From positions 1 through 63,408 of the forward strand of contig JAXDQV010000146.1 of the NCBI GenBank assembly GCA_034667645.1: a stretch of 63,408 nucleotides of DNA. The letters run 5' to 3'. The stretch is from Chthoniobacter sp. (GTDB taxonomy: Bacteria > Verrucomicrobiota > Verrucomicrobiia > Chthoniobacterales > Chthoniobacteraceae). A program made the translations under genes and the position numbers. The notes beneath the pieces were generated by a model. It saw nothing but the letters and a program-made list of their open reading frames with translations, was not told where the DNA came from and did not search any database. Positions 1,599-30,921 of the stretch are shown piece by piece (position 1 is the first letter of the stretch; every line of letters begins with the position of its first letter).

Positions 1599-1786
1599 CC
1601 GGCATGCCTCCTGGCTGATCACCATTTTCAGCGGCACCCGACTTCCATGCGGGAGAGGGTGCGCAGAACATCCGTTAACGGACGAAACACGCGGCGCGCC
1701 AAGAGAAAAGTGGGTATTTGTTTTTCAGTGAATTGAGTAGTTCTGCTCATTCCGAAGCGCGCCGTTTCCCATAGCTTCGGAGAGTG

Positions 1787-2617
1787 ATGCCTCCAAAATC
1801 CGGCGCCGGAAAATCGTCTCAGAAAATCTCCCGCGGTTTCGGCTGGGTGCCCGACCTGCCCGACCAGCGCGATCACGCTTATGCCGCCCCGATGGCGAAA
1901 CTCGGAGCGCTCCCGCGTCGCGCCGACCTGCGGAAACTTTGTCCGCCGGTTTACAATCAGGGGCGCATCGGCTCCTGCACGGCGAACGCGATCGCCGCCG
2001 CCCTCGAGTTCGACCGCAAAAAACAGAGCCTCGCGGACTTCATCCCGTCGCGCCTTTTCATCTACTACAACGAGCGCGCCATGGAGCACACCATCGGCTC
2101 CGACGCCGGCGCGATGATCCGCGACGGAATCAAAAGCGTCGGCAAAAAAGGGGCGTGTCCGGAAACCGAGTGGCCTTACGACGACACGCCAGCAGACTCG
2201 ACCACGAGCCTTTGGCCCAAGGACGCGAAGCCTGCGCAGAAGCCGCCGAAGCCGTGCTACGACGACGCGAAGAAAGCCCGCGCGCTGAATTATCAGCGCG
2301 TCGATCGCACTCTCACGCAGATGAAAGGCTGCCTCGCGGACGGCTTTCCGTTCGTCTTCGGGTTCACGGTTTACGACAGCTTTGAAAGCGACGCCGTCGC
2401 CAAAACCGGGCTGCTGGAAATGCCTGCACCGGGCGAGGGGGTGGTGGGGGGGCACGCCGTTCTCTGCGTCGGCTACGACGATAAATCGCAACATTTTCAC
2501 GTGCGGAATTCCTGGGGCACGACGTGGGGGAAACGCGGCTATTTCACGATGCCTTACTCCTACCTGCTCGACGAAAACCTGTCCGACGATTTCTGGACGA
2601 TCCGGACGGTCGCCTAG
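1787..2617 (+). CDS. papain-family (C1) cysteine peptidase, no signal peptide
   Basis: QGRIGSCTANA (oxyanion Gln and catalytic Cys), GGHAVLCVGYD (His), NSWGTTWGKRGYF (Asn-Ser-Trp). Confidence 0.85.
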   Translation: MPPKSGAGKSSQKISRGFGWVPDLPDQRDHAYAAPMAKLGALPRRADLRKLCPPVYNQGRIGSCTANAIAAALEFDRKKQSLADFIPSRLFIYYNERAMEHTIGSDAGAMIRDGIKSVGKKGACPETEWPYDDTPADSTTSLWPKDAKPAQKPPKPCYDDAKKARALNYQRVDRTLTQMKGCLADGFPFVFGFTVYDSFESDAVAKTGLLEMPAPGEGVVGGHAVLCVGYDDKSQHFHVRNSWGTTWGKRGYFTMPYSYLLDENLSDDFWTIRTVA

Positions 2618-2626
2618 CCGTCATCC

Positions 2627-4000: not shown

Positions 4001-4800
4001 ATTTTTTATCGAAAATCCAGCTCAGCTTTCTCGCACTCCTCGTCCTTTTGCTCACCGGCTGCGCGGGCGGTCCCGGTCAGCCCAAACCGCTTGCGACCCT
4101 TTATCATTCCTACGAATCGGATCGTGTCGCGCGTTATCGGGATCCGAATTCCCCGGCGATCGCCGCGGCGAGCACCAGCGCGGGCGCCCGCAACGACTTG
4201 ATGAACGACCTGATCCTCATGATCGATCACAACTATGCGGAGATCGAAAAGCGTCTCTACGGGAACAAGTCATGGGCGGATTTCGGCGGCAGCGTGCTTG
4301 CCACGGGCCTCGGCACGGCCGGCACGTTGAGTGGCGATCTCGTGGTAAAAACGACGCTCTCGGCGCTCGTCACCGCGATTGATTCAACGAAGGTTTCTTT
4401 CAACAAGGACGTCCTCCAGGGCCAGAGTATCATCGCGATCATCGCCACCATGCGAAAGATGCGCGCGGAGAAACTCCTCGAGATCCGGCTCGCGCAAAAG
4501 CTCAGCATCCACGGCTATCCGCTCTCGCTCGGCCTCGATGATCTGATGGCTTACTACAATGCCGGCACCTTCATCGCCGCGCTCCAGGGCATGACCGAGG
4601 ACGCCGCCTCCGGCAAGAAGAACGCGGAGGAAAGGCTCAACTCCTTCAAAGTGCAGGGCGTGGTTCCAGTGAAAGTCGCGCCGAGCCATCCGACCGGTGT
4701 CATCGAACCGGCTGCGACCGGGGCGACGAGCGTAGATCCGGATGTCCCGACCAAACTCCAGCCGTCGCATCCGATCGGTGTTGTCGAAAGCGCCCAATAA
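3997..4800 (+). CDS. lipoprotein of unknown function
   Basis: Signal peptide with lipobox LLLTGCAGG. Translationally coupled to the preceding hydrolase gene. Confidence 0.6.
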   Translation: MNFLSKIQLSFLALLVLLLTGCAGGPGQPKPLATLYHSYESDRVARYRDPNSPAIAAASTSAGARNDLMNDLILMIDHNYAEIEKRLYGNKSWADFGGSVLATGLGTAGTLSGDLVVKTTLSALVTAIDSTKVSFNKDVLQGQSIIAIIATMRKMRAEKLLEIRLAQKLSIHGYPLSLGLDDLMAYYNAGTFIAALQGMTEDAASGKKNAEERLNSFKVQGVVPVKVAPSHPTGVIEPAATGATSVDPDVPTKLQPSHPIGVVESAQ

Positions 4801-4803
4801 CCA

Positions 4804-6006
4804 ATGAGCATCCTGCGCACTCTGCCGATCGATCTTTCACTCGAGTCTCTGCAAGAGCGGCTGCGCCATTGTGAGCAAGGCATGACGGTGAACGGGAAAC
4901 TCGTGCCGACCATGTTGTTGAGCCTGACGCGCGATACCGCGTTGACGCCGGAGAGCCCGACCGTGCCGGTGGATGTGAATCTCGCGGATTTTGACCCCGC
5001 CACCGAGGTGGCTGGAAAGATCGAGCTGATCGGCGATGTCCCGCCGGAAACCGACCCTGACTCGCGGGCCGCGTTTTTCCGTAATCTCCAGCGCATCAGC
5101 CTCGAGATCGTTTGCTTCTCGGACGTTTTCGTTAAAGGAAAGATCCAGGAAGTCGTCACCTGTCACGAACTGGCGGAAGATCCTGCGCCCGTGCCGGAGC
5201 CCGTCCCGATCCCGACGCCGGCTCCAATTCCAGTCCCGGCTCCGGTTCCTGCACCGACTCCAGTCCCACCTGTTCCAGCGCCCTTGCCCATCCCCGCACC
5301 GCCAGTCCCTGCGCCCGCGCCGACCCCAGTCCCGGCGCCGACACCGGTTCCAGCTCCGGATCCAACCCCGACCCCAGCGCCGGCTCCTGCGCCGATGATC
5401 TCTCAAAAAGCCTTCGAACTCATTCGCGAGTTTGAGGGAATTGATCAGCCCGGCATCTGGCCCGGCGCCTCGTCCGGGATTTCGCTTGGTGTCGGCTACG
5501 ACCTTGGCAGCGTCACCGCGTCCGAGTTCAAGCAGGATTGGGCGGAGCCGCTTTTGTCCGGAAATCATTTTGACCGGCTCCTAGGCGCCATCGGAGTCGC
5601 CGGGCAGGCGGCGCGCGCGATGGCGCCGACTTTTCGCGACATCAAAGTGAGCGAGAGCGCCGCGAGCGAAGTCTTTGCGCAACGCACGGTCCCGCTTTTC
5701 CACGCGCTGACGCGAAAGACCTTTCCCGGCATGGAACAGCTCCCCGCGGACGCGCAGGGGGCGCTTTTGTCGCTCGTCTATAATCGGGGCAGTGCGCTCA
5801 GCGGCGACCGGCGCACCGAGATGCGCGCGATTCGCGACATCATTCAAAACGCGGTCCAGAGCGGCAGCGTCAAAAGCAACTTGCGCCCGGTGCTCCATGC
5901 CATTGCGGCGGAAGTGCAGTCGATGAAACGTCTTTGGGTCAACGCGGGCGTTCCCGGGTTGCTGCGCCGCCGCGATGCCGAGGCCGAACTCATCCGCAAT
6001 GCGTGA
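4804..6006 (+). CDS. three-part protein: N-terminal domain, about 70-aa (P-x)n linker, C-terminal lysozyme-like (GH24/pesticin-type) domain
   Basis: Pro-rich linker encoded at about 5182..5394. C-terminal LIREFEG...ISLGVGYDLG...LLRRRDAEAELI resembles phage-type lysozyme signatures. No signal peptide. Confidence 0.6.
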   Translation: MSILRTLPIDLSLESLQERLRHCEQGMTVNGKLVPTMLLSLTRDTALTPESPTVPVDVNLADFDPATEVAGKIELIGDVPPETDPDSRAAFFRNLQRISLEIVCFSDVFVKGKIQEVVTCHELAEDPAPVPEPVPIPTPAPIPVPAPVPAPTPVPPVPAPLPIPAPPVPAPAPTPVPAPTPVPAPDPTPTPAPAPAPMISQKAFELIREFEGIDQPGIWPGASSGISLGVGYDLGSVTASEFKQDWAEPLLSGNHFDRLLGAIGVAGQAARAMAPTFRDIKVSESAASEVFAQRTVPLFHALTRKTFPGMEQLPADAQGALLSLVYNRGSALSGDRRTEMRAIRDIIQNAVQSGSVKSNLRPVLHAIAAEVQSMKRLWVNAGVPGLLRRRDAEAELIRNA

Positions 6007-7432
6007 TATGAATTCCCGACTGCTCTCGCCGCTCTTCGCACTTTTGCTCGGTCCGGCCTTTTCGCAAGCCGAGTCGGTGGAGCCATCGGGCGCAGTCGCG
6101 TTGCCCGCCGCTGCTCCGCTCAGCGCGGATGCACTTCCGGCGGTTGCGGAAGCTCCGGCCCAACCCACGCCCCCGCCTTATGCGCGTTATGAAACCACGG
6201 GAGTTTTCCATGTCCGAAATGAACGCCGGCCTTCGCAAAACCCGGAGACCGATGCCTGCGTGGCGCGGCGCGGCGACGTGATATGCGTCTATGTAAAGCA
6301 CCTCAACTCCTGGTTGCGCGACCCGCTGTATAAGGATCGGTTTCCGAAGGACGCGAAAATTGCCGATCTGATTCCTTATCTGGATGACGTGCCGTTGAAA
6401 GGGATTCATCCGGAGCAATCGTGGCCCGAACCGCCAGACACGGACTCGGAAGCTTCGCCGCAGGTTCATTACCTGCGTTTCACATTGAGCCGCACGGAGA
6501 CCTCGAAGAGTGCGTGGACGCAGATTCTGAATCGCCCAAACTTCCAAAAGCTCATGAAGGTCTCAGTCGGCTTCGAGAATGGAGAAGAGATGCGCACCTG
6601 GGTGCTGCCGACATCAAAGAAGTCGGAGAACCTCTTCATTTTCACCCTGATCCCGCCATTCCGTTTCTGGCTCGGGACCGTGCTGATTCTCGGCGCATTC
6701 GTGGTTTTCGTTTACCTCGCGCGATGGACGGACATTATCCGCGACACCGGCGCGCCGTTGCGGCCGGACAAGCGCTGTCCTTACAGCCTTTCCCGCGCGC
6801 AGATGGCGTTCTGGTTTTTTCTGGTCGTCGGCGCGTTCTTTTTCCTGTGGGTCATCATCGGCGACACGGACACGCTCAATCCGTCGGTGCTCGGTTTGAT
6901 CGGCATCAGCGCGAGCACCGCGCTCGGGGCGGCGTTTGTGGATTCGGGGAAAAAAACGGCGCCGGCGAGCGAAACGGAATTGCCGGCCGTCAACCTTTCC
7001 CAGCCCCGGCGAAAAATCTGCGCAGAGATCAGCAAACTGATCGCGAAGGAGAAAGCGGAGCTGAAAGAAATCGAGACCGAGCGGGCGAAAATCGCCCCAG
7101 CCGATGAAACGAAGCTCGCGGCGAATGCAGCGGCACAAGCGAACAAAACCCAGCAGATTGCCGACCTCCAGCGTCAGCTCGATTACTTCGAGTGGCCGGC
7201 GTGGAAAGGGACGATGTATGATCTCCTCGCGGAGAACAACGCAGTCTGCTTTCACCGCTTCCAGATTTTCGTCTGGACGATCGTGCTCGGCATCATGTTC
7301 GTCGCGAACGTTTACAATCAGCTCGCGATGCCGGAGTTCAGCGCCACGCTGCTCGGCCTACTCGGGATCAGCGCTGGCACCTACGTGGGATTCAAAATTC
7401 CCGAAAACAACAAGACGAAGGAAGACGCCTAG
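5999..7432 (+). CDS. signal-peptide membrane protein with an internally duplicated 2-TM module and a coiled coil
   Basis: MRDMNSRLLSPLFALLLGPAFSQA leader. Start overlaps the stop of the lysozyme-like gene by 8 nt. Repeated ...LGL[IL]GISA[SG]T... TM modules flank an ELKEIETERAK...LQRQL coiled coil. Confidence 0.6.
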   Translation: MRDMNSRLLSPLFALLLGPAFSQAESVEPSGAVALPAAAPLSADALPAVAEAPAQPTPPPYARYETTGVFHVRNERRPSQNPETDACVARRGDVICVYVKHLNSWLRDPLYKDRFPKDAKIADLIPYLDDVPLKGIHPEQSWPEPPDTDSEASPQVHYLRFTLSRTETSKSAWTQILNRPNFQKLMKVSVGFENGEEMRTWVLPTSKKSENLFIFTLIPPFRFWLGTVLILGAFVVFVYLARWTDIIRDTGAPLRPDKRCPYSLSRAQMAFWFFLVVGAFFFLWVIIGDTDTLNPSVLGLIGISASTALGAAFVDSGKKTAPASETELPAVNLSQPRRKICAEISKLIAKEKAELKEIETERAKIAPADETKLAANAAAQANKTQQIADLQRQLDYFEWPAWKGTMYDLLAENNAVCFHRFQIFVWTIVLGIMFVANVYNQLAMPEFSATLLGLLGISAGTYVGFKIPENNKTKEDA

Positions 7433-7491
7433 AAACGCGCGCCACTCACGTCAGAAGTTTTTTAAATAAACCAAGCCCGGCGAATCCTCTT

Positions 7492-8643
7492 ATGAACTTA
7501 TCCGACATCATCCACGCCACGACGCAGCCTTATTCCGCTTTGCGCCGGGAGTTGAAGTTCAAGGACTGGTTTATCATCTCGCGGAGCCTGGCTTTCAACA
7601 TGCAGGCGCAGACGCAGAGCAATTGGTGCTGGGCGGCGACGGCGCGGAGCGTGTCGCATTTCTATTGGTTCCTGAGCCGCTGGTCGCAGTGCAAGATCGC
7701 GTGCGCGGAATTGAACCTGACGACGTGTTGCGATACGACGGTGCCGGATGACTGCAACGTGAGCTGGTATCTGGCGAAGGCGCTGACGCGGACGCAGAAT
7801 TTCGTGAGTGTGACGGGGACGGTGAGTTTCGCGACGGTGAAGGCGGACATCGATGCGGGGCGGGTGGTCGGAGCGCGGATCGGATGGAGCGGCGGCGGCG
7901 GGCACTTCTGCGTGATCTACGGCTACACGGAGGCGATCTTTGGCGAGGACTACTTTGACATCGACGATCCAATCTACGGGAAATCGCACCTGACGGTTTC
8001 CGACTTTACCAATAACTATCAGGACACCGGCACATGGACGGACACGGATTTCACCAAGAGCCACATCGATTTTATGCCGATCATTCCCATTCTCGTGGAT
8101 CAGGAAATCCTGCGGCATATCTGGGAGCAGCGACCTTTGCTCGGGGTGAAAGCAGGGCTGCCGGTGGAGGAGATCGAGAAGACCGAAGGGCGCACCTTGG
8201 GGCTGGCGCATCCGGTCTTCACCCTGGGGCTGAACGAACTGAAGGAAGCGTCAGCGCGAGCGGCGCAAACAGGCGTGCGGGTCATGGAATTCGCCGGCGA
8301 AACACCGCGCGCGTTTTACGATGTCGCGGACGGCAAAGAGGGAAGCGTGCGGCAGATGTCGGCGACCAGCCCATACCTGCAACTTTTGCCACGGGCCATG
8401 GAAGTGGTATCCGCGTTGCCGGCGGACGAACGGCAGTTCGAGCTGCGTTTGCTGCGGGTGCCGGCGCTCAACTTCGAGGCGCTCTGGCTGCACTCGGGAG
8501 AGGGTGAGGAGGATCGCGTGATTCCTCTGCGAAACTTTCACGGGTTCGCTCCCATGCACGCAGTCTCTTATCGGGAGGCGCTCGAAAAACTGCGCCACGC
8601 GGCGCGTTCCGTGCGCCAGCAGGATGACGCGATGGGAGCCTGA
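7492..8643 (+). CDS. papain-fold cysteine peptidase (C39-like/BtrH-like) with a C-terminal domain of unknown function
   Basis: QTQSNWCWAATARS (Gln about 5 residues before Cys), GGGGHFCVIYGY (His), DIDDPIYG (Asp). No signal peptide. Confidence 0.6.
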   Translation: MNLSDIIHATTQPYSALRRELKFKDWFIISRSLAFNMQAQTQSNWCWAATARSVSHFYWFLSRWSQCKIACAELNLTTCCDTTVPDDCNVSWYLAKALTRTQNFVSVTGTVSFATVKADIDAGRVVGARIGWSGGGGHFCVIYGYTEAIFGEDYFDIDDPIYGKSHLTVSDFTNNYQDTGTWTDTDFTKSHIDFMPIIPILVDQEILRHIWEQRPLLGVKAGLPVEEIEKTEGRTLGLAHPVFTLGLNELKEASARAAQTGVRVMEFAGETPRAFYDVADGKEGSVRQMSATSPYLQLLPRAMEVVSALPADERQFELRLLRVPALNFEALWLHSGEGEEDRVIPLRNFHGFAPMHAVSYREALEKLRHAARSVRQQDDAMGA

Positions 8644-8659
8644 GAAACTCGAAAAACCC

Positions 8660-19026: not shown

Positions 19027-19146
19027 AACGGAAATCACCGCCGCTAAGCGATCACCCTTAATCACACAAACGGAAAGCGGCAGCCTGTGAAAGGGCTGCC
19101 GCTTTTCTTTGATCAGAGATTGATAAATCAGAGTTTTTTTCGGTTC
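19027..19146 (+). repeat. about 120-nt duplicate of 15398..15514 (gene 3' end, terminator hairpin and downstream flank)
   Basis: AACGGAAATCA[T/C]CGCCGCTAAGCGA..., identical hairpin AAAGCGGCAGCC/GGCTGCCGCTTT at 19074..19105, then ...GATTGA[A/T]AAATCA.GAGTT..CGGTTC. No intact upstream gene on this strand. Confidence 0.75.
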
Positions 19147-22076: not shown

Positions 22077-22539
22077 GCGCAAAGGCGCAAAGGTTTTAGG
22101 AGTGCATATCCGGCGTGGGTTGCGAATCGGGAAGACCGTTTACGACCCGTGCAATTCCGTCTTTAATGCGAGGAAGGCCAAAGTTGAGGACGAGTCCGAG
22201 TCGTTTTCCGGTGAGACGAAGCTGGGTGAGTAATTGCTTCTTGTGGACAGCGTGGTTTTCTTCCACGGACTTTATCTCAACGATCACGCTTTCTTCCACC
22301 ATGAGATCGGCACGGAAGCCGACTTCGAAGCGCAATCCGCGATATTGAATCGGAATTGCAACCTGCCGCTCCACTCGCAGCCCGCGCGACTGCAACTCAT
22401 GCGTGAGCACCACCTCGTAAACCGATTCGAGCAGTCCCGGCCCCAGCTCCGTATGAATCTGATAAGCCGAATCCACGATGATTGCTGCCAACTCGTTTTC
22501 GCTCCTTTGCATTTCCTTCGCGACTTTGCGCCTTTGCGC
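22077..22539 (-). mobile_element. inverted-repeat-bounded module carrying a GxxExxY gene, inserted inside the ABC-transporter operon
   Basis: Perfect 16-bp inverted repeats GCGCAAAGGCGCAAAG (22077..22092) and CTTTGCGCCTTTGCGC (22524..22539) bracket the ORF exactly. Confidence 0.6.
22096..22512 (-). CDS. GxxExxY family protein (PD-(D/E)XK nuclease fold)
   Basis: IVDSAYQIHTELGPGLLESVYEVVLTHEL...EIKSVE...QLLTQLRLTGKRLGLVLNFG is the family signature. The internal ATG at 22510..22512 lies inside the inverted repeats. Confidence 0.85.
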   Translation of the reverse strand: MQRSENELAAIIVDSAYQIHTELGPGLLESVYEVVLTHELQSRGLRVERQVAIPIQYRGLRFEVGFRADLMVEESVIVEIKSVEENHAVHKKQLLTQLRLTGKRLGLVLNFGLPRIKDGIARVVNGLPDSQPTPDMHS

Positions 22540-22547
22540 GAGGGTCA

Positions 22548-23504
22548 CTACTTCGGCAGCCATTTCTCCCAGTTTTTCGCAAACTCATCGACGTTCTCTT
22601 TCGTCACCGGCACGAGGGCGCTCACGTCCACCACGGCGTCGGGATTTTTGTGCAACGATACTTTGTTAAACAAGTGCTCAACCGAGCGATGGCCCCACTC
22701 GTAGCACTGTTGCGCGAGCAACAATTGCACGTGGCCGCTGCGCAGATACTTCAGCTCCGCCGGCAGCGCGTCCACCGAGACGCACTTGATCGTGCCGGGC
22801 TGCCACTTCAGCGCGTTTTCGGTAAACAGCGGCCAGCCGCCGATGAATGCCCAGCCGGTGATGTCGGGATTCGATTGCATGACCTGCTCGACTTTCGCCG
22901 CCGCGTCCTGCGGCGTTTCCTTGTGGTAATAAGTCTCCTTGATCGTGATGCCGGGAAATTTCTTCGCCACATTGCGCACGCCTTCCACCCGCTTTTGCAG
23001 GTTCGGCGCGTTTTGGTTTCCCGCTAAAATCGCGACCACGCCTTTGCCCTCCATCGTTTTCGCGAGTTCCTCCATCACCTGCTCGCCGCACTTGATGTCG
23101 TCCACGCCGTAGGTGACGAAGCGTTTGCTCTTCGGCGCGTCGGAATCGAACGTCGCGACCGGCACGCCATTATCCGCCGCCGAGTTGATCGCGTCGGTGA
23201 GTTTGTTCGCGTCCGAGCAGCTCACGGCAATTCCATCCACGCCCGCGAGCATGAGCTGCTCGATGGCTTCCGCCTGCTTTTGCGCGTCCTCCTCGTTGGG
23301 CGTGCGCCAGTCGATTTTGATCGCGACGCTGTTTTTCGCGCTGAGTTCCTTGGCGGCATCTTCCGCGCCGACACGTGCGGCCTGAAATACCGGATTGCTC
23401 TGCGACTTCGCGACGAGGCCAAACGTGAGCGATTTTTTGTCTTCGCCGCGCGCGGTGAAAACGGTGAGGGTGAGGAGGAGGATTAGTTTTTTCATGAGAT
23501 TCAT
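22548..23504 (-). CDS. sugar ABC transporter periplasmic substrate-binding protein
   Basis: Signal peptide, then the periplasmic-binding-protein type I pattern (FGLVAKSQSNPVFQAARVGAEDAAKEL...). Confidence 0.85.
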   Translation of the reverse strand: MNLMKKLILLLTLTVFTARGEDKKSLTFGLVAKSQSNPVFQAARVGAEDAAKELSAKNSVAIKIDWRTPNEEDAQKQAEAIEQLMLAGVDGIAVSCSDANKLTDAINSAADNGVPVATFDSDAPKSKRFVTYGVDDIKCGEQVMEELAKTMEGKGVVAILAGNQNAPNLQKRVEGVRNVAKKFPGITIKETYYHKETPQDAAAKVEQVMQSNPDITGWAFIGGWPLFTENALKWQPGTIKCVSVDALPAELKYLRSGHVQLLLAQQCYEWGHRSVEHLFNKVSLHKNPDAVVDVSALVPVTKENVDEFAKNWEKWLPK

Positions 23505-24613
23505 TTGCGGCCCGCGCGGGCAGCCAGTCGGCGCTGCGCGAGCCAGTTGTTGAGTTGGTCGAGCACGACCGCGAGGATCACGACCGTGCCGATGAGGATT
23601 TGGGAGTAGTTTTGGTCAATGCCGAGAATGACGATGCCGCTGCTGATCATCTGGATCAAAAGCGCGCCCAGCACGGCGCCGAACGCGGTGCCGCGTCCGC
23701 CGGACAAGCTCGCGCCTCCGACGACCGAGGCAGCGATCACGTTCAACTCGTAGCCCTGGCCGTCGCCCGAAGTCGCGGCGCCGTAGTAACCGAGAGCGAT
23801 GAGCGCCGCGATGCCTGCGGTGAGGCCGGAGCAAACATAGACGCCGAGTTTTACCCGGTTGACCTGGATGCCGCTGAAACGGCTCGCCAGTTCGTTGCCG
23901 CCGATCGCGTAAACCCGGCGGCCGGCAGCCATGCGAGCGAGGAAAACGCTGCCGGCGATGGCGACGACCACCATTACCGCGAGCGGAACGACACTCAAGC
24001 CGCCGCTGGTTTCGTAACGCACGATCTCGCGCAGATGCGGAGGAAAACCGCCGACGGACTGACCGTGCGTCACCACAAACGCGACGCCGCGAAAGACCGC
24101 CATCGTGCCGAGCGTGATGATGAAAGGATGAACCCCCAGCGCGACAATCATCGCGCCATTGGCCAGGCCGCAGGCGGTCGCCGCGCCGAGACAGGCGAGC
24201 ACGCCGGGCCAGATGCTTCCATTTTCAAACGCGTGAAAAGCCATTGCGCCCAGCACCGAAGCGAGCGCGTAAATCGCGCCGACCGAAAGGTCGATGCCGC
24301 CGGCGATGATCACAAACGTGATCCCGACCGCCATGATCGCGATGAAGCTGGTGTCTTTCGCGAGCTGCGCGAGATTTTGCGCGTTCAGGAATTTGTTTTT
24401 CTCGATCACCGCCGCGGTTCTCTCGCCGGCTGCATCGGTCACAAAAACGCGATGCCGCTGACCATCGGCGCCCACCTCAAAGCGCGGCGTCTTGACCGTG
24501 CCGCCAAAGATCGAAAGCAGCGTGCCGATCACCAAAATCGCGAGCAGCAAGCCGCCTTCCTGCAGACGCAGTTGGCGCTTCGGTTCGGGGGAAATCTGCG
24601 CGGGAGGCGACAC
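23501..24613 (-). CDS. sugar ABC transporter permease (RbsC/branched-type)
   Basis: Multi-TM protein with ...GGIDLSVGAIYALASV... motif. GTG start. Stop overlaps the substrate-binding-protein start (ATGA). Confidence 0.9.
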   Translation of the reverse strand: MSPPAQISPEPKRQLRLQEGGLLLAILVIGTLLSIFGGTVKTPRFEVGADGQRHRVFVTDAAGERTAAVIEKNKFLNAQNLAQLAKDTSFIAIMAVGITFVIIAGGIDLSVGAIYALASVLGAMAFHAFENGSIWPGVLACLGAATACGLANGAMIVALGVHPFIITLGTMAVFRGVAFVVTHGQSVGGFPPHLREIVRYETSGGLSVVPLAVMVVVAIAGSVFLARMAAGRRVYAIGGNELASRFSGIQVNRVKLGVYVCSGLTAGIAALIALGYYGAATSGDGQGYELNVIAASVVGGASLSGGRGTAFGAVLGALLIQMISSGIVILGIDQNYSQILIGTVVILAVVLDQLNNWLAQRRLAARAGRK

Positions 24614-24690
24614 GGGGGAGCGCGAAAATTACCGGCACGCGGCAGGCGCGGCGATCAGAAAATGCGCGGCACGCCGCGTCCGTCCCGCCG

Positions 24691-25387
24691 TCATCGCGCC
24701 GTCATCGCATAGATATACATGTTGAGGATGAGCTTCATGCAGCCGGGAGCCCGCAGCGGCGTCTGCGGCCAGCCGCATTGCAGGCCATACATGCTGATGA
24801 TCGAGACCATGTGGTCGTTCACGAAGACGCCATATAACCCGTAGTTTGCGCACCTTTCCTGATTCCCCATGTCCTTGGTGTAAATGTCGGCCCGGCTTAC
24901 CTTAAAAAAAGCAGGTGTAGATGCCATGTGTCTCCGGCAGCTTTCGAAACTCGGCCTCCGGAAACATGCGCTGAAAAATAGCGCAGTTCGCGCGCAGGCA
25001 GACCTCCATGTCCGGATTGACTCCCGGGGTTGCGCAGGCGTCCACGCAGAGGAAGCCGCCACGGCGCAGATACTCGCCGATGTTGGCCAGCCGCGCCGGG
25101 TCGGTCACCCATCGGAGATCCTTCGCATAGATGAAAGGGTAGCCGCACATCTGATCGAGGTGTGCCGGATCAGCCGGTTGGGGCGACATCCGGAGATCGA
25201 GACTCGTCTTTTCCCGGATAAATTGGGCCAGCGGGGCATCACGATCACGATGGACTTGCCAATCCCTGTCTGGCGTGAGCAATCGCGCGAGGTCAACCCG
25301 TTCCGCCTTATGCTGACTCTGCGCATTGGATGGCGATGTAGGCAACCAGATCACCACGACCGCGAGGAAGGCTGATCGATGATCCAT
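24691..25387 (-). pseudogene. DUF4159-like gene split by a 1-nt frameshift in an A7/T7 homopolymer
   Basis: The 24902..25417 ORF ends ...THGIYTCFF* in the T-run (24904..24910). Reading continues in the 24691.. frame as FFKVSRADIYTKDMGNQ...LILNMYIYAMT. Confidence 0.6.
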
Positions 25388-25405
25388 GGGATAACTCCTG
25401 CCGGT

Positions 25406-25425
25406 CCTGACATTCAACAGTCAGG
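25406..25425. repeat. degenerate third copy of the CTGTTGACAATCAACAG-type palindrome
   Basis: CCTGACATTCAACAGTCAGG (6-bp arms) aligns to CCTGTTGACAATCAACAGTTAGG of 16651..16673. Confidence 0.45.
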
Positions 25426-25426
25426 C

Positions 25427-25461
25427 CTCTGTTCCTGTTCACGGCGGCTCATCTTCAGAAA
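25427..25461 (-). repeat. intergenic module copy A (first half only)
   Basis: Minus strand reads TTTCTGAAGATGAGCCGCCGTGAACAGGAACAGAG, starting 4 nt after the stop of the 25466.. ORF. Confidence 0.8.
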
Positions 25462-25465
25462 TGGC

Positions 25466-25759
25466 TCATAAGGAATCTCCGAGGCTGAGTGCAAAGTAGA
25501 GTCCAAAGTAAAGCACACTCCATCCCATAGCGGGAAGATAGGCTACTACCATGAGAGTCCTCCAAAGGCGATTGACAGGCAAAAAGAGCAAAGGAACAGC
25601 CCCGAAGAGGGTGGAAATTGCCAGCGCGCTAAAGGCGAGCGGAGAATTGCCATACCAGCGAGTATGGAAAACCGCAGTGATAAACAGCCCGAAGGCAAGG
25701 TAGGGGATCAATGCTGCCCACAATAGCAGCAAAATGGTGGGGATTTCTCTCGTTCTCAT
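25466..25759 (-). CDS. small polytopic membrane protein, unknown function
   Basis: MRTREIPTILLLLWAALIPYLAFGLFITAVF... has three or four hydrophobic helices. ATG directly follows module copy B. Confidence 0.5.
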   Translation of the reverse strand: MRTREIPTILLLLWAALIPYLAFGLFITAVFHTRWYGNSPLAFSALAISTLFGAVPLLFLPVNRLWRTLMVVAYLPAMGWSVLYFGLYFALSLGDSL

Positions 25760-25829
25760 GCTCTTCCAGTTTGGGAGCGTTCTGTTTGTCCTAGAACTCT
25801 GTTCCTGTTCAGGGCGATGTGCTTCCAAG
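25760..25829 (-). repeat. intergenic module copy B (degenerate first half, full second half)
   Basis: Minus strand reads ...CGCCCTGAACAGGAACAGAGTTCTAGGACAAACAGAACGCTCCCAAACTGGAAGAGC, followed by ATG. Confidence 0.8.
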
Positions 25830-25858
25830 CCGCCGGGGGTTTGGAAATGAGAACATAA

Positions 25859-26188
25859 TCACTCCATTAGAATCTGAACCAAATCCTGATTCCTGGTATC
25901 GGTGGCGATGGCCAGCATCCGACCCGGACGATAGAATAGCGCGAAACCCTTGTCAGGAAACTTCACGCCGTGGGCGATCAGGATGTTCTTCCAATCGGTC
26001 ATCCCTTCGGCCTTCAGTCCCATCATTCCTTTCGGCAGGGGGCCATATAAAACGATCACGCATCCCGGCGGGCACTGGGGGAGCGGGAATGGCCTGCGGT
26101 AGTCTGGATCAGAAGACCATGCTCCTTGTGCGGCATAGCCATAAACCAGAATGCAGCCTGCAAGAATGAGGTAACGCATCCTTGTCAT
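25859..26188 (-). CDS. small secreted protein, unknown function
   Basis: MTRMRYLILAGCILVYGYAAQGAW leader. Unrelated in sequence to neighbouring ORFs. Confidence 0.5.
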   Translation of the reverse strand: MTRMRYLILAGCILVYGYAAQGAWSSDPDYRRPFPLPQCPPGCVIVLYGPLPKGMMGLKAEGMTDWKNILIAHGVKFPDKGFALFYRPGRMLAIATDTRNQDLVQILME

Positions 26189-26210
26189 AGCCTTCCCCTC
26201 CTCACTTCCA

Positions 26211-26282
26211 GCTCTTCCAGTGTGAAGCGTTCTGCTGGTTCTCGGCACTCTGTCCCTGTTCATGGCAGCTCATCTTCAGAAA
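26211..26282 (-). repeat. intergenic module copy C (both halves)
   Basis: Minus strand reads TTTCTGAAGATGAGCTGCCATGAACAGGGACAGAGTGCCGAGAACCAGCAGAACGCTTCACACTGGAAGAGC. Confidence 0.8.
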
Positions 26283-26307
26283 TCTGTTAGCTGCTAATGT
26301 TTAAAAC

Positions 26308-26883
26308 TCATTCCATTTGTCTTTTCAGAAGGTTCACTTCCCGCCAGTTTAATGGACGCTTCCATAGTGGGGCTTTCAGTAATTTTTGAAACGCGGTTTC
26401 GATATCCACGCGACTGACGAGGTGATAATGCCGGGATGCCCAATCGGTATTGGATAAGCAATAGTGCAAATAAGGGGGGGCTTCTTCAGCGTGTCCGAAC
26501 AGAGCGTAGTCGGACACGATTAGAAATGGAATGTCGTCGATTATCACGATTGGCTCAAGGGGCCAGTCTTTCTCCGAAGTGCCACCGTAAAATCCCGCAC
26601 CGCCAAGCATCGGTGCGCGAAACGCCATGTTCTTTCTCGACTCAAAAAGCATCCTGCAGAGAAGAATTACTTGTTCGTCATATTTTTTGGAGCTCGCCCA
26701 CCGTTGGAGCCGAATGATCGCTTCATCCTTCCCTAGAGATTGTAACTCCACGGCCAGGGCAACGAAAGGGGTGGGCTTATACGAACCTATATCGCCACAC
26801 TCCTCTATGTTGGTAGCCCAAGCTATCGTGTCGAAAAGCGCGGCTAACATAATCAAAACGAAAAGCGGTGGTCGTCCTCTCAT
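26308..26883 (-). CDS. hypothetical exported protein
   Basis: MRGRPPLFVLIMLAALFDTIAWA leader from the ATG at 26881..26883, which directly follows module copy D. Confidence 0.5.
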   Translation of the reverse strand: MRGRPPLFVLIMLAALFDTIAWATNIEECGDIGSYKPTPFVALAVELQSLGKDEAIIRLQRWASSKKYDEQVILLCRMLFESRKNMAFRAPMLGGAGFYGGTSEKDWPLEPIVIIDDIPFLIVSDYALFGHAEEAPPYLHYCLSNTDWASRHYHLVSRVDIETAFQKLLKAPLWKRPLNWREVNLLKRQME

Positions 26884-26886
26884 TCT

Positions 26887-26961
26887 GAAACTGTTCCAGT
26901 TTGGAAACGTTCTGTTTGTTCTGGCACTCCGTTCCTGTTCAGGGCGGATCATCTTAAGAAA
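26887..26961 (-). repeat. intergenic module copy D (both halves)
   Basis: Minus strand reads TTTCTTAAGATGATCCGCCCTGAACAGGAACGGAGTGCCAGAACAAACAGAACGTTTCCAAACTGGAACAG. Confidence 0.8.
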
Positions 26962-26987
26962 GCTGCGGTTGTAATATGCTAGATAAG

Positions 26988-27341
26988 TCACCGCGACAGC
27001 GTCTTGTGCTCAGGTGGGATAGTGGCTGGATCGAATCCGAACATGAGCAATGGCTCGCTTGGCGAAGCATTATCGTTGAGCCCTTGTCGGTAAAGAACGA
27101 ATGAATCAAAGCGGGGTTCCGTTGCTGACACGCCTTGAGACGCAAGAGCCTTAATGTCAACGCGAGATTCTGAGGTGTTCGGGGCGAAATATCGCGAAAA
27201 GTCACGATCAGTAACCCAAAGCGCTTCGCTCAAAGTCATTAGCCTGGGTCTGTGAAAGTGCTGCCACAAAATGACCACTCCGAAAATGAAGGCAACCAGA
27301 CACAACGCGAAGGCAAAAAGCCTGAACCAGCGGAGTATCAT
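26988..27341 (-). CDS. hypothetical N-terminally anchored protein
   Basis: MILRWFRLFAFALCLVAFIFGVVILW anchor. No recognised domain. Confidence 0.5.
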   Translation of the reverse strand: MILRWFRLFAFALCLVAFIFGVVILWQHFHRPRLMTLSEALWVTDRDFSRYFAPNTSESRVDIKALASQGVSATEPRFDSFVLYRQGLNDNASPSEPLLMFGFDPATIPPEHKTLSR

Positions 27342-27371
27342 TTTTCATATCTCGCCACTTCCGTCTCAAGT

Positions 27372-27394
27372 CCATGGCGGCTCATCTTCAGAAA
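27372..27394 (-). repeat. intergenic module copy E (first half, truncated)
   Basis: Minus strand reads TTTCTGAAGATGAGCCGCCATGG. Confidence 0.7.
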
Positions 27395-27468
27395 CCTATG
27401 GAAAGCCGGAGACCTTTGGCGCGCGCGCAAGTGGCAGCGGTTGCACACGTCGGGCATTCCTACATAGG

Positions 27469-27963
27469 TTAAGTCTCGTCACGGACAATTTGAAGAACTA
27501 ATCCTGACTTAAGGTCTTTGACCTTTTCCATTACTCTTATTTCTCCGTTTTTTGTCGGATAGTCTCCGCAGAGAATGTGACTGCCGACTCCAGCATCCTG
27601 GGACAAAGCATGCTTGATCGGACATGCCACGGCCTGAAGGGCGTTGTTTGGCAGCGACGTAAAGAGACTTCCGCATCTCATCGAAATCGCTATGCCCCGA
27701 TCCGTATCATGCATGAGGATGATAAGATCGCCTTTGCGTTGAAATCCTACACGACCGAGGTATTGCTGCGTAATCCGCCCATCCTTGACGAGATCAACCC
27801 ATGCAGTGAATTTATCGGGTAAATTCTTCGCAGGTATGCGCCAAGCATAAACGCCTAGATGTTGCGCCAACTCAGAAGCCGAAATATCGGGACCAGAAGC
27901 CTTGGTTGGTAGGCAGAATAGGAGGGCAGCGCACAGGAACGTGAGCGTTGTTTTTGTAGTCAT
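27469..27963 (-). CDS. secreted hypothetical protein
   Basis: MTTKTTLTFLCAALLFCLPTKASG leader. AT-richer than the core genome. Confidence 0.55.
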   Translation of the reverse strand: MTTKTTLTFLCAALLFCLPTKASGPDISASELAQHLGVYAWRIPAKNLPDKFTAWVDLVKDGRITQQYLGRVGFQRKGDLIILMHDTDRGIAISMRCGSLFTSLPNNALQAVACPIKHALSQDAGVGSHILCGDYPTKNGEIRVMEKVKDLKSGLVLQIVRDET

Positions 27964-28027
27964 TGTGGATGAGGCCTTATAGGAAGTTAGTTAACAAGGT
28001 TCACCCGCGTCAAACTCCGGTTTCCCC

Positions 28028-28058
28028 CTCGTGCCCAAAGTGAGGCTTTGGGCACGAG
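28028..28058 (-). terminator. strong hairpin downstream of the 28079.. gene (no U-tract)
   Basis: Perfect 13-bp stem CTCGTGCCCAAAG/CTTTGGGCACGAG with a 5-nt loop, 20 nt after the TAG at 28079..28081. Confidence 0.35.
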
Positions 28059-28078
28059 AGTCAAAGGCTTAGCCGCTC

Positions 28079-28812
28079 CTATCCCCTTACGGTCAAGTTG
28101 AGCGGCTGGGAGATTTGGCCGAAGGGTTTGTTTTGGTAGCGGTATTGGACCTCGAAGATCCAGACCTCGGCGGTGCCGGCGGCGGGGAGCGGTTCCTCGA
28201 CCACGTAGCGGCGGGTGGTGGAGAAGCCGAGCTGCTTTTTCGGCTGGCCGGGGCGGGTGATCCAGACGGTGTAGCCTTGGAACTGGCCCTTGGTGCAGGT
28301 CAGCTCGGGATGGCCGCTGGAGTAAAGGTCGCCGGTGACTACGGGGTGGTGGTGATCGGGTCGGGCGCCGGGATTTCCGCGCCCTCGATGCCGAGGAGTT
28401 TCCCGTCGCTCTCGTCGTAATTGTCGGCGTTTTTGATTCCCGCCACGGTGCTGCTGAAGAAGGTGAAGAAGCCGGGCTCGAGCTGGGCGGCGACGGCGGG
28501 CGGGCCGGCGGAGACCTGCGGCGCGGCAGGCAGCGTGGGCAGGCCGGGCAGCGGCTGCGGGGCGCCGGGCGCGCCGGTGAGCATGGAGTCGCGGGTGCCG
28601 GTGAGGCTTTGGCTCCAATTCCGGGCGACCACGAGGGCGTCGAGGAACCATTGCCAGACGAGCCGCGCCTGATGGATGCGGGCGAGGTCGGCGGCATCGA
28701 GGCTGTATTTGGTGGCGAGCGCGCCGGCGTTGGCGTTGATATTGGTGTCAAAGGCGACGAGCATCGTGGCGATCCCGTCGGCGGTGAGGGGCATGTAGGA
28801 TTGTTTGGGCAT
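28079..28812 (-). pseudogene. hypothetical helical plus beta-sandwich protein, split by a frameshift near 28340..28346
   Basis: The 28339..28812 frame ends ...PDPITTTP*. The 28079.. frame continues VVTGDLYSSGHPELTCTKGQ...EVQYRYQNKPFGQISQPLNLTVRG. The junction lies at a G4/C4 run. Confidence 0.5.
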
Positions 28813-28907
28813 GGGTGGGTTTGCTGGGTGTTTTTTTGGGTTTTACAGAGAGAGTCGGGGCAAAAACGGGCTGTTTGGGGCCTAAGCCATGGGGAACGGG
28901 CGCTCCC

Positions 28908-29033
28908 CTGCGGCGGGTGAGCACTGAGGAGCCGCTGGTGAGGGCTCAGGAGCGGCGGGTGAGGGCTCGGCCACGGCGGATGAGCACGCGGGAGCGGCGG
29001 GTGAGGCTGGAGCCGTGGCGGTGGAGGGAAAAC
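28908..29033. repeat. 21-bp tandem repeat, five to six copies
   Basis: GAGCGGCGGGTGAGGGCTC[A/G]G-type units begin at 28908, 28929, 28950, 28971 and 28992, with a degenerate unit at 29013. Confidence 0.75.
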
Positions 29034-29256
29034 CTGCCGCGGAAAAGTGCTCATCTCCCGTAATTGAGCGCTCACCGGCGACGGCAGAGCGCGGACCCGC
29101 GGCCGCTTCCCCACCGCCCGTGGAGCGCGCGGGAAAAGAAGAAACGCCGGAGGGAAAATCCGGCGTGGCCAAAAACGCAGGAAAAGCTAGCGGCCTATCG
29201 AGGCCGTGGAAGGCTCGCCCGCCCGCCAACCGCCACGAGCCCCAACCTCCGCCTCG

Positions 29257-29296
29257 GCCTTGGAGCCTTGGAGCCTTGGAGCCTTGGAGCCTTGGA
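29257..29296. repeat. 8-bp tandem repeat (GCCTTGGA) x5
   Basis: Five perfect head-to-tail copies in the 700-bp ORF-free region upstream of the 28079..28812 gene. Confidence 0.9.
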
Positions 29297-29456
29297 CATG
29301 TTGCGGGGGTTAAACGGTTTGCACCGAACCGTCAATCCTCTTTCGCGGGTGTGGCGGCTTTCCGCGGCACCCTCGATCCCGGCGGGCGTGCGCTGTGTTC
29401 AAAAAAGTCCGTGCCAGCCCCCCACCCTCACCGCATGTAGCCACAACGAAAGAACA

Positions 29457-29505
29457 ACCCAACTAAGCTCCAAGTTCTACTTGCAATCTTCCATAGGGGT
29501 TAGGC
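29457..29505 (-). repeat. attC-like box pair downstream of the 29513.. ORF
   Basis: Minus strand reads GCCTAAC (fits RYYYAAC) 7 nt after the stop ... CAAGT-AGA-ACTTG hairpin ... GTTGGGT (fits GTTRRRY). Only 49 nt long. Confidence 0.3.
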
Positions 29506-29512
29506 GTTGCGG

Positions 29513-30109
29513 TCATTTGGGTTCAGGTTGCTCCTTCTTGCTACCTCTGTTGGCTTTGATTACCGCGTTGAGTCGTTCCAGATAGTAATCGCGGCAGGCT
29601 TGGTCATACGTGGGAACGTCTTCGCGCTTGCATTCCTTGATGTCAACGATGTAGGCGTTGAACTGGCAATAGAATAAACCCACTCCATACTGCCGTGACA
29701 ATGCGTCGGCTAATTCGGGGCCATCCTTCGTGCGCTCATTCCATTCGCCTGGAATATAGATGATATTCGGAAAGGGAATGCGGCCACCAAGCCGGTCGTC
29801 CGCGACTTCGGCATTGAGGGGGAAGGTCGCGTAGAACTCGGTCAGGATAGCCTTGAGTTCTGGGAAGCTGAAGTCGCGATCAATGCCCAACAGGCGATAG
29901 CTGGGTGCAACGGTGGGACTGCGGCGAAGCGCGTTGTCGCCACGCACAACTATGCTGTAAGTGGATTCTCGTCGGAGGTAACGGTCTGGCTCGGTCTTCT
30001 CGGCAGGCGGTCGCACCACCGAAAATTCAATGGCGCGTGGATCAATTTCGTTGTTGGCGCGTAGCGTTACGATGCCGAGGAGAAGGACGGTGAATGTTCG
30101 AAAGGTCAT
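29513..30109 (-). CDS. secreted hypothetical protein
   Basis: MTFRTFTVLLLGIVTLRA leader. AT-richer. No recognised domain. Confidence 0.55.
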   Translation of the reverse strand: MTFRTFTVLLLGIVTLRANNEIDPRAIEFSVVRPPAEKTEPDRYLRRESTYSIVVRGDNALRRSPTVAPSYRLLGIDRDFSFPELKAILTEFYATFPLNAEVADDRLGGRIPFPNIIYIPGEWNERTKDGPELADALSRQYGVGLFYCQFNAYIVDIKECKREDVPTYDQACRDYYLERLNAVIKANRGSKKEQPEPK

Positions 30110-30138
30110 GGTGGTGCTTCCGAGGTCGCGCGTAGCAT

Positions 30139-30215
30139 CGCCTAACTCTGAATTAGGCGAAAAGAGGTTGCCCTCGCGGCAGGTGATTTTGTTCGCCTAA
30201 TTCAGTTTGAGGTTG
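30139..30215 (-). repeat. compound palindrome with GCCTAAC/GTTAGGC boxes (attC-like architecture)
   Basis: Perfect 14-bp inverted repeats CTGAATTAGGCGAA (30148..30161) and TTCGCCTAATTCAG (30192..30205) with a 30-nt spacer. Outer CGCCTAAC (30139..30146) pairs imperfectly with TTTGAGG at about 30206..30212. Confidence 0.45.
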
Positions 30216-30468
30216 CATCGATACACGGCGTTGTTCGCATAAGACAGGATCGTCTCCAAGGCTCAACTACTCGAGCAAAGCGGAGGTGGCGCTTTTTTAA
30301 CTCATCTTTCTCGGCACGCCCTCCGGCTTTTTGGATTGCGCGGTTGCAATCAAGGTTCGGCTACAGGAAAGAAGCCGGAAAGGGCGCTCGGGCGAACCGC
30401 CGGAGCGGCGCGTTGCAAAATCGATCTTTCGGGATGGCAAAATTGTTTTCGCGCAGTAGCATCGCACC

Positions 30469-30921
30469 ATGCTGGAGCAATTAATCACCATCGCTACTTT
30501 CAACAGCGACATCCCCGCAGAAGAGCTGAAGGACCGGTTTCTCGACGCCGGATTGCGCGCCGAGGTGCTGGACGAATCCGGGACGCAGGCGCTGTTTTTT
30601 TCCACGAGAGAGCCGCGGGCGCACATGCGCGTGCGCGTGCCGAAGGCGGACAACGATCGCGCGAAGGCGCTGATGGCGGAATGGAGCGAGAAGGAAAGCT
30701 TCATGCGCGAAGCGGTGCGCTGCCCGCAGTGCGGCTCATCGCAAATCGAGTATCCGCAGTTCTCGCGGCGGACCGGGATGGCGTGGTTTTTCGGCGTGCT
30801 GGCGGCGATCGGCGTCATCCCGCGCCTCTATTTTTGCGAAGACTGCAAATTCGAATGGCCGGACAAGGAACCGGCCAAACTCGATCTCGATCCGCTGAAC
30901 TGGCCGAAAGGGCAGAAGTAG
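30469..30921 (+). CDS. small protein with an N-terminal DUF2007-like domain and a C-terminal zinc ribbon/TM
   Basis: CPQCGS...CEDCKF Cys pairs flank a hydrophobic segment WFFGVLAAIGVI. Confidence 0.5.
   Translation: MLEQLITIATFNSDIPAEELKDRFLDAGLRAEVLDESGTQALFFSTREPRAHMRVRVPKADNDRAKALMAEWSEKESFMREAVRCPQCGSSQIEYPQFSRRTGMAWFFGVLAAIGVIPRLYFCEDCKFEWPDKEPAKLDLDPLNWPKGQK

Follow-up and report, generated by a model that had tools for sequence, protein, structure and literature searches.

Contig JAXDQV010000146.1 of Chthoniobacter sp. (assembly GCA_034667645.1; 63,408 nt, all of which was analysed and is called the window here) carries a short islet of low GC content in which five junctions between small genes, all on the minus strand and within 25422–27397, share one common, non-palindromic module of 35–90 nt. 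The GC content is 0.49–0.55 over 25.2–28.2 kb compared with about 0.60–0.70 on either flank, placing the islet about 12 GC points lower, at ~50% in a chromosome of ~62%. It holds five open reading frames (ORFs) on the same strand (164, 117, 191, 109 and 97 aa), each with a signal peptide, a lipobox or transmembrane segments. The GC content at their third codon positions (GC3) is 0.53–0.61, against 0.70–0.80 in most core genes. No pairwise similarity was detected among the ORFs by BLASTP (best E 0.5), none has a family match in Pfam, PHROG, NCBIfam or PADLOC, and the 90% clusters of the islet proteins contain nothing but those proteins. The islet ORFs are mutually unrelated and of foreign composition, in line with an original prediction, made from the sequence of this region, that the genes between the repeats are small, exported or membrane-bound, AT-richer than the core genome and unrelated to one another.

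A module shared by five junctions

The module can be divided into three parts, named alpha, beta and gamma in gene direction. Junctions are labelled A to E by descending coordinates, which reverses the order used in the original prediction (its A is junction E here). The parts, the junctions and the genes that they separate are as follows.

Alpha part of the module: TTTCTGAAGATGAGCCGCC, 19 nt
Beta part of the module: TGAACAGGAACAGAG
Gamma part of the module: TGCCAGAACAAACAGAACG..CCAAACTGGAAGAG, ending beside the downstream start codon
27469–27963, minus strand: ORF1, 164 aa, with an N-terminal signal-peptide-like segment; first gene of the islet, no module upstream
27358–27444, minus strand: junction A (E of the original prediction), module copy 27358–27397; alpha only, 27376–27394
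26988–27341, minus strand: ORF2, 117 aa, with an N-terminal transmembrane helix
26876–26965, minus strand: junction B (D of the original prediction), full; alpha 26943–26961 (2 mismatches), beta 26927–26941, gamma 26877–26926
26308–26883, minus strand: ORF3, 191 aa, secreted protein
26197–26286, minus strand: junction C, full; alpha 26264–26282, beta 26248–26262, gamma with +1 and -1 indels relative to B and D
25859–26188, minus strand: ORF4, 109 aa, probable lipoprotein (LAGC lipobox read from the sequence)
25746–25833, minus strand: junction D (B of the original prediction); degenerate alpha 25812–25830 (ATG lost), beta 25797–25811, gamma 25760–25796
25466–25759, minus strand: ORF5, 97 aa, polytopic membrane protein
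25422–25462, minus strand: junction E (A of the original prediction); alpha 25443–25461 and beta 25427–25441, 4 nt past the ORF5 stop
24691–25387, minus strand: DUF4159 gene (PF13709, E 1.2e-18, profile positions 2–125 of 202), of core-like GC, directly downstream of junction E

Matches to the module far exceed chance. When up to 3 mismatches were allowed, alpha had 4 matches in the window against 0.05 expected, a number reached in 0 of 100 shuffles, and the gamma core had 2 matches against 0.00 expected. Beta has four real matches, at 25427, 25797, 26248 and 26927. A repeat finder gave the same families, D3 and D4 (the latter covering junction D, 84% over 70 nt), and an nhmmer profile built on the five copies recovered precisely those five (E 2e-25 to 4e-06), with no further copy in the 63-kb window or in any fetched locus. 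All five of the minus-strand junctions for which one sequence had been claimed are present.

Depth is low (4–7), the assemblies are of short reads and the repeats are longer than 31 nt, circumstances that would favour a repeat-driven assembly chimera. Against this, all modules are internal to Logan contigs with unique sequence on either side, and the contig breaks fall inside ORFs and not at modules. A soil contig from the Joint Genome Institute (JGI; contig L001) is 99.93% identical to the window across 4467 nt, corresponding to 24924–29390, without gaps. The module is real and not an assembly artefact; that the array is such a chimera, or a repeat by chance (the observed counts were never reached by the shuffles), is scarcely credible.

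The start of alpha lies 74, 26, 25 and 4 nt downstream of the preceding stop codon, and the end of gamma is 1–22 nt from the next ATG. This measured geometry agrees with what had been described for the first half of the module (4–74 nt after the stop) and for the pattern of complete and incomplete copies. Alpha has a sharp 5′ edge in junctions A, B, C and E and in a 1064-nt contig described below, while the 3′ limit of homology is variable or graded, lying past alpha in A, past beta in E, and within the first codons of the following ORF in B and D. In junction A, alpha is preceded by a pre-alpha stretch (27395–27444) containing a GC-rich near-palindrome at 27414–27431, and likeness to the other copies stops about 6 nt past alpha. 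The module end of junction B is given as 7 nt before the ATG of ORF3 (26883). At junction D the module abuts the ATG of ORF5 (25759), and the likeness to B decays gradually across the first ~30 nt of the ORF. After beta in junction E comes unrelated sequence with a small hairpin, followed by the start of the DUF4159 gene.

An ATG within alpha opens frames that differ in their relation to the downstream gene. In A, the alpha-ATG (27385) starts a 15-codon ORF whose TGA overlaps the ORF2 start (ATGA). In B it is in frame with ORF3, and the NCBI annotation begins the protein there (214 aa). The corresponding ORF in C has 23 codons and stops 13 nt before the ATG of ORF4 (26188), within GTGAGGAGG, and in E the frame stops 26 nt before the next ATG, its TGA overlapping an in-frame TTG. 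The frames closed by a stop in A, C and E read MSRHGLETEVARYEK, MSCHEQGQSAENQQNASHWKSWK and MSRREQEQRPDC, respectively. Despite the lost alpha ATG of D, its module and ORF5 form one open frame from an upstream TTG. The claim that the module is conserved at the nucleotide level regardless of frame is supported.

Further copies and their distribution

The Logan contigs of a single soil metagenome run (X1) were aligned with the islet. Variant contigs had a depth of 4–7, similar to that of the reference contigs. In gene direction, the 1064-nt contig has GC-rich sequence with a hairpin, followed by alpha, a 74-nt stretch, a copy of ORF5 (ORF5′, 90% nt identity) and alpha-beta. Its alpha is identical to that of C at 25 of 26 nt, and past alpha-beta comes TGCGTTCCAAGACAAATATGATCTTCAAGC, a shortened gamma-like stretch with a new ATG, which replaces the DUF4159 leader. 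Contigs of 671 and 393 nt carry a copy of ORF2 (ORF2′, 86–88%) with pre-alpha and alpha (A′) upstream and alpha-beta (B′) downstream; beyond alpha-beta there is a diverged gamma (ACAGACAGAACGAACAAGCAAACG...) and then 390 nt with no match to ORF3. Only the pre-alpha stretch and alpha (27374–27444) are in common with a 744-nt contig, and only alpha-beta with one of 371 nt, so that pre-alpha plus alpha recurs in two non-reference contigs (393 and 744 nt). In the ORF5′ and ORF2′ contigs, which are short and of unassigned genome, similarity to the window ends at or beside the module edges.

Two of the five cassette genes (ORF5 and ORF2) recur in this way, with modules on both sides and different neighbours, in the same soil metagenome, which is the kind of reordering that had been proposed beforehand as a check. 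No variant contig was found over the DUF4159 gene or the neighbouring binding-protein gene. A syntenic sister strain is thus not their source; they come from different loci, either elsewhere in this genome or in a second organism. Since non-reference contigs carry the module, there are at least six further copies, and the total is about 11, all from one soil sample. Confinement of the module to this locus, which the original prediction had named as counting against it, was not found, because other contigs of the run carry the module.

Between junction A and its diverged copy A′, alpha has no substitution in 19 nt, the only change being a one-T lengthening of the 5′ T-run. The flanks differ by 9 substitutions and an indel in 34 nt downstream, and by 4 substitutions in 7 nt upstream. 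This better preservation of alpha than of its flanks indicates either constraint or homogenisation.

Some, at least, of the islet ORFs are real genes. ORF3 belongs to a genuine, though rare, family: its two homologues are 59% and 41% identical to it, with 57 invariant columns. For one of them the DNA is available (locus L014): the gene stands alone, with no module, and begins at an MR.R signal peptide without an N-terminal extension. An AlphaFold model of ORF3 (pLDDT 67) had no fold match in the PDB. Among the changes listed between ORF5 and its 90% copy, 9 are synonymous and 11 are mostly conservative replacements; for ORF2 and its diverged metagenome copy (86–88% nt identity), the listed in-ORF changes comprise 9 synonymous and 12 nonsynonymous ones. 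The roughly equal numbers of synonymous and mostly conservative changes in ORF5 and ORF2, together with the ORF3 homologues, point to protein-coding function.

Beyond this soil sample, the module was searched for by an exact-pattern scan with TTCTNAAGATGANCNGCCNTGRAC; the source genome of the window is absent from both of the contig collections scanned. There were 3 matches among 185,579 GTDB species genomes, attributable to chance only and with nothing in common beyond the pattern, and 9 matches in a metagenome contig collection, again chance only, eight of them in one conserved coding gene. Two pattern scans of IMG/VR gave no module, and BLASTN of the islet against phage and plasmid records gave no match. 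One public run, the soil metagenome, holds the organism; among RNA runs there is none. For the permease gene adjoining the islet, the best relatives with a name are Verrucomicrobiota (Pedosphaera, Limisphaerales and Lacunisphaera). In the nearest relative (84% identity in the permease), synteny is lost exactly on the islet side of this gene, and there is therefore no orthologous locus that can be compared. In every collection scanned, the module is confined to one lineage.

Interpretation of the module

A shared promoter and an attenuator were among the functions originally offered for the module. No sigma-70-like promoter was found in the conserved part of any module, non-sigma-70 verrucomicrobial promoter types being outside the scan. 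The sole minus-strand sigma-70 match near a junction (27369–27340) is in copy-specific sequence just downstream of alpha in A, with a second hexamer that extends into the start codon of ORF2. The dinucleotide TA is absent from the full alpha-beta-gamma copies except in TCTAGG (D) and TTAAG (the alpha variant of B). Inside the islet there is no minus-strand terminator, and no terminator/antiterminator pair or conserved alternative pairing was seen; GC-rich hairpins occur only in the pre-alpha stretch of junction A and in the flank of the 1064-nt contig. RNA folding compared with shuffles gave z = +0.7, -0.25, -1.3 and -1.5, and D alone folded better (z = -2.6) by way of a copy-specific stem. 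No common or conserved RNA fold was found among the modules, and Rfam 15 over 24000–30500 returned 0 matches at E <= 1. With neither a sigma-70-like promoter, nor a terminator/antiterminator pair, nor a conserved fold, the promoter and attenuator readings gain no support.

Several specific candidates were tried and set aside. Short upstream ORFs (uORFs) are present in A, C and E, as a leader-peptide attenuator would have, but neither terminators nor conserved alternative pairings accompany them. Repeats of the REP, BIME, ERIC or MITE type do not fit, since the module is not palindromic and the remaining 60 kb of the window contain no copy. The CUGAAGA of alpha resembles the CUGANGA box of the hammerhead ribozyme, yet no ribozyme model matches. 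Judged by eye, the observed spacer of 21 nt does not suit an extracytoplasmic function (ECF)-type promoter (GGAAC-N16/17-CGTT), and the spacing is also wrong for a sigma-54 promoter (TGGCAC-N5-TTGC) and for a dif-like 11-6-11 dyad.

If the module were purely a cis-regulatory element, it might act as a DNA operator or as an RNA–protein binding platform that co-regulates a small regulon of exported proteins, and the array itself would have arisen by unrelated processes. Several features are candidates for such a role: the [AG]GAAC[AG] motif occurs five times, CsrA-like GGA motifs number two or three, and beta includes an (ARN)4 run. In favour are the fact that alpha has changed less than its flanks where loci have diverged, the GAAC spacing kept in B, C and D, the constant position of the gamma end beside the start codon, and the unstructured RNA. 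The GAAC spacings (6, 13, 9 and 15 nt) show no helical periodicity, however, and no known promoter or Rfam family matches. Genes follow junctions A and E although neither has gamma and A is also without beta. A regulatory element also leaves unexplained why unrelated genes of foreign composition are stacked here and why they recur with new neighbours, and on balance this explanation is unlikely.

The frames of B (from the alpha ATG) and D (from the TTG) share the peptide RPEQE.S.RTNRT.PNW.S.R.R.., with 19 of 33 columns invariant, and this weakly suggests a shared coding N-terminus. The module would then be the relic of a coding 5′ end (a start codon, a polar cytoplasmic tail of ~23 residues and the beginning of a signal anchor) that was duplicated onto different protein bodies, with A, C and E as frameshifted or truncated remnants. 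The two indels of C restore the frame, the NCBI annotation starts ORF3 at the alpha ATG, and the likeness between B and D fades gradually into the signal peptide. Five of the eight B/D differences are at third codon positions, an excess that is not significant (p about 0.09). On the other side, D has no ATG, C reads a different peptide over 8 codons, and A, C and E contain stops. The ORF3 homologue of L014 starts at its MR.R signal peptide with neither extension nor module. When a profile of the peptide was compared with 1.84 billion representatives, it matched no real protein and only three artefacts of translated repeats. A coding relic is accordingly a doubtful origin for the module. One of the profile matches (P0133) is a 76-aa 'protein' in which NRTLPDWNVK recurs every 22 residues, a translated CRISPR-like or tandem DNA repeat; its likeness to the gamma peptide (NRTLPNWKS) is due to chance.

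Two families of known systems also combine a conserved leader with variable genes. In the orphan modules downstream of cdiA/rhs genes a short conserved fragment stands ahead of variable genes and is truncated to a variable extent, a pattern explained by insertion and displacement through homology. The islet resembles them in having a conserved fragment, variously truncated, before variable genes. The cdiA/rhs fragment, however, encodes the pre-toxin region of a large toxin gene lying upstream, and pairs of toxin tips and immunity genes come after it; the islet has neither such a gene nor such pairing. The vlp/vsa families of Mycoplasma and the lipoprotein families of Borrelia have a conserved promoter, 5′ untranslated region and signal peptide with variable bodies. 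A conserved 5′ leader, similarity that fades into the signal peptide and divergent exported proteins are common to these and the islet, whereas their mature proteins are recognisably related or repetitive and the islet bodies are unrelated. Their phase variation proceeds by inversions or slipped-strand tracts; the module has no inverted copies and no homopolymer switches.

The organisation of the islet also recalls gene cassettes. All of the ORFs are co-oriented, unrelated and skewed in GC content, and alpha-beta travels with the upstream gene: ORF5 and ORF5′, and likewise ORF2 and ORF2′, are each followed by alpha-beta, beyond which the sequence differs. The last junction, E, consists of alpha-beta joined to core-type sequence. 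The module could on these grounds be the target of a site-specific recombinase whose gene lies outside the window. This would be a cassette system like integrons, clusters of attC sites lacking integrases (CALINs), recombinase-associated acquired interbacterial defence (rAID) arrays or Xer modules, with a crossover near the beta/gamma boundary and with each cassette bearing gamma at its 5′ end and alpha-beta at its 3′ end. Integrons and CALINs share with the islet the promoterless-looking, same-strand, unrelated small ORFs with a recurring separator, and may have no local integrase; arrays of cassettes with no integrase close by have been described under the name CALIN (Cury et al., bioRxiv 10.1101/030866).

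Their attC sites are imperfect inverted repeats (R''-L''...L'-R') that form a hairpin and have a GTTRRRY core at the crossover, whereas the module is direct, asymmetric and unstructured and has no such core. The absence of attC-type symmetry had been noted in the original prediction and is confirmed: no inverted repeat is common to the five junctions, no attC-type hairpin or palindrome was found, and no copy except D folds better than its shuffles. GTTRRRY has 70 matches in the whole window against 79 expected, and none is inside a module; of those in the islet, one lies by chance 9 nt beyond junction E (25412–25418) and the other two are inside ORFs. Pfam scans of ~65 ORFs across the 63-kb window detected no integrase, recombinase or transposase, be it of the XerD family or the tyrosine recombinase IntI, which with attI and Pc stands at the head of an integron array; a recombinase near the module, which had been proposed as something to look for, was thus not found among these ORFs.

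In the rAID-1 arrays of Bacteroidales (Ross et al., bioRxiv 10.1101/471110), small same-strand ORFs are accompanied by a GC skew and by repetitive sequence between the genes, and all three features are found here. These arrays open with a conserved XerD-family recombinase, of which there is none in the 63 kb, and they have many ORFs with recognisable immunity homologues, whereas the islet has five genes and belongs to another phylum. The islet ORFs gave no immunity-family match in general scans of Pfam, NCBIfam, PHROG and PADLOC, in which dedicated immunity profiles were not included.

The junction ends do not fall at one fixed nucleotide, A breaking past alpha and B and D fading into the ORF, and the module is absent from the 185,579 species genomes. 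Diverged gamma-like sequence is present in copies B′ and E′, so that the beta/gamma 'break' is in part a limit of the alignment. The proposed non-canonical recombination site shows neither a hairpin nor a conserved crossover core, and the window ORFs scanned include no recombinase; a site-specific system of this kind is improbable. It is likewise improbable that the hairpin-less bipartite junction (alpha-beta / gamma) marks a previously unknown gene-capture system of Verrucomicrobiota, in which [gamma-ORF-alpha-beta] units for exported proteins would leave as circles and enter at the beta/gamma boundary through the action of a recombinase whose gene is located elsewhere. Such a system would be an analogue of integrons in function, with a site of a different kind.

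The sharp 5′ edge and variable 3′ extent of the copies are fitted better by homology-driven exchange or one-ended insertion than by a fixed crossover. The explanation that we favour, tentatively and at somewhat less than even odds, is that the module is a lineage-private intercistronic leader which doubles as portable homology for the shuffling of cassettes. It would be attached to a pool of genes for small exported or membrane proteins in a soil bacterium of the Verrucomicrobiota. As the same 35–90 nt lie between unrelated genes, general recombination between copies could shuffle the units: RecA-type events would excise, insert and reorder [gene + module] units, and truncated copies (A and E, for example) would result where homology assisted at one end only.

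In the mRNA, the module may have a second role. Ending at the start codon, the beta-gamma stretch is unfolded, poor in U and rich in A and purines. Relative to the next start, the alpha-ATG frame is fused in B, overlaps as ATGA in A, and stops short by 13 nt in C and 26 nt in E. On a post hoc reading of the five copies, this suggests a function in translation initiation or relay, in which the beta-gamma leader and the alpha-ATG frame would pass ribosomes over the 78–127-nt gaps of a polycistronic mRNA.

Several points weigh against a shuffled leader of this kind. No recombination event was directly observed, and the additional contigs are at most 1.1 kb long and unassigned to a genome, so that their 'different' flanks may in part be homologues of <80% identity. 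Stretches of 35–90 nt at 70–92% identity are near the lower limit for RecA-dependent exchange, and so exchange would be rare. Junction D has no alpha ATG, and a relay ORF can therefore not be essential. No RNA run holds the organism, and the operon structure and translational role are proposed from sequence. With about 11 copies from one soil sample, drift and gene conversion are inseparable from selection. The cassette-like organisation that had been predicted is partly borne out, in that the copies of ORF5 and ORF2 are bounded by modules and have new neighbours; its recombination mechanism and translational role we infer.

Among known systems, the proposed shuffled leader is also comparable with the promoter-early stem-loop (PeSL) motifs of T4-type phages, which separate ORFans and coincide with rearrangement breakpoints (Arbiol et al. 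2010, PMC2839356; PMC4122927). Both are short conserved intergenic motifs that reach from the upstream stop to the downstream start, between small ORFans, and that would provide homology for modular shuffling. The module lacks the PeSL hallmark of a consensus sigma-70 promoter with a stem-loop terminator, and PeSLs belong to phage genomes (the hyperplastic region), whereas the module is on a bacterial chromosome and has no phage matches. The element forms a small repeat family, private to its lineage, that does not show the features by which integrons, rAID-1 arrays or PeSLs are defined; we group it with the conserved intergenic repeats known to flank accessory ORFans and to shuffle them.

If this is correct, mobile regulatory cassette shuffling would extend from T4-type phages to the chromosome of an uncultured soil member of the Verrucomicrobiota, and integron- or rAID-like arrays beyond Proteobacteria and Bacteroidales, with a site that has neither hairpin nor adjacent recombinase. 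The 19-nt alpha box would then be a handle for finding the accessory secretome cassettes of the lineage. The ~11 copies come from one sample and have no relatives in public genome collections, and the general importance is therefore limited unless the mechanism is shown.

Surroundings of the islet

The window is otherwise ordinary chromosome, with genes for IspH, Der, an HflX-type GTPase, MiaA, BamA, LpxD, an ABC sugar transporter and similar functions, and without tRNA genes. The islet is situated between a hypothetical gene and the DUF4159 gene and adjoins the operon of the ABC sugar transporter; its upstream neighbours encode hypothetical proteins, DUF2007, a metallophosphoesterase and DUF4153. 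The DUF4159 gene is frameshifted at a T7 run (~24903–24910), its C-terminal part going on in another frame. This frameshift rests on the sequence of the window, as the JGI contig begins at 24924, short of the T7 run.

The hypothetical gene upstream of the islet (28079–28812, minus strand) encodes 157 aa up to a TAG after ACCACCACCCCG. A clean C-terminal domain of 88 aa is found in another frame, indicating a frameshift at a C run, and the low-complexity parts coding for P, A and T match many other contigs of the soil run. Further upstream, GCCTTGGA is repeated five times at 29257–29296 (within 29224–29600). Sequence near this repeat has a depth of 80 in the soil run compared with ~5 for the genome, and looks widely repeated or shared.

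Downstream, a gene for a PD-(D/E)XK nuclease (22096–22563, minus strand; PDDEXK_3, E 3.7e-37) of lower GC content lies between the genes for the ABC ATPase and the binding protein. The nearest relative (L015) has nothing at this position, which suggests a selfish insertion in the operon.

Other repeats are found in the window. The intergenic region 14119–14270 contains a 41-nt unit, GCGAGGCCCGAAGGCTTTTTACAATTGCAATTCTCACCCGT, in 2.6 to 4 tandem copies. An intergenic pair at 39–73 and 16641–16675 (91% identity) holds the operator-like palindrome CTGTTGACAATCAACAG; a second intergenic pair is at 15465–15506 and 19094–19135, and a further pair, 83% identical, at 16906–16946 and 29392–29432.

About 14 kb from the islet, a plus-strand cluster (1784–11149) is possibly an effector cluster. 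It includes a protein with a Tle1-like phospholipase domain (10010–11149; PF09994, E 7e-85), a papain-like C1 peptidase (1784–2617), a C70/C39-like peptidase (7492–8643) and several unannotated proteins. On the same strand, at 54965–56473, is a gene of the Pup-ligase family (PF03136, E 7e-170), here on a Verrucomicrobiota chromosome.

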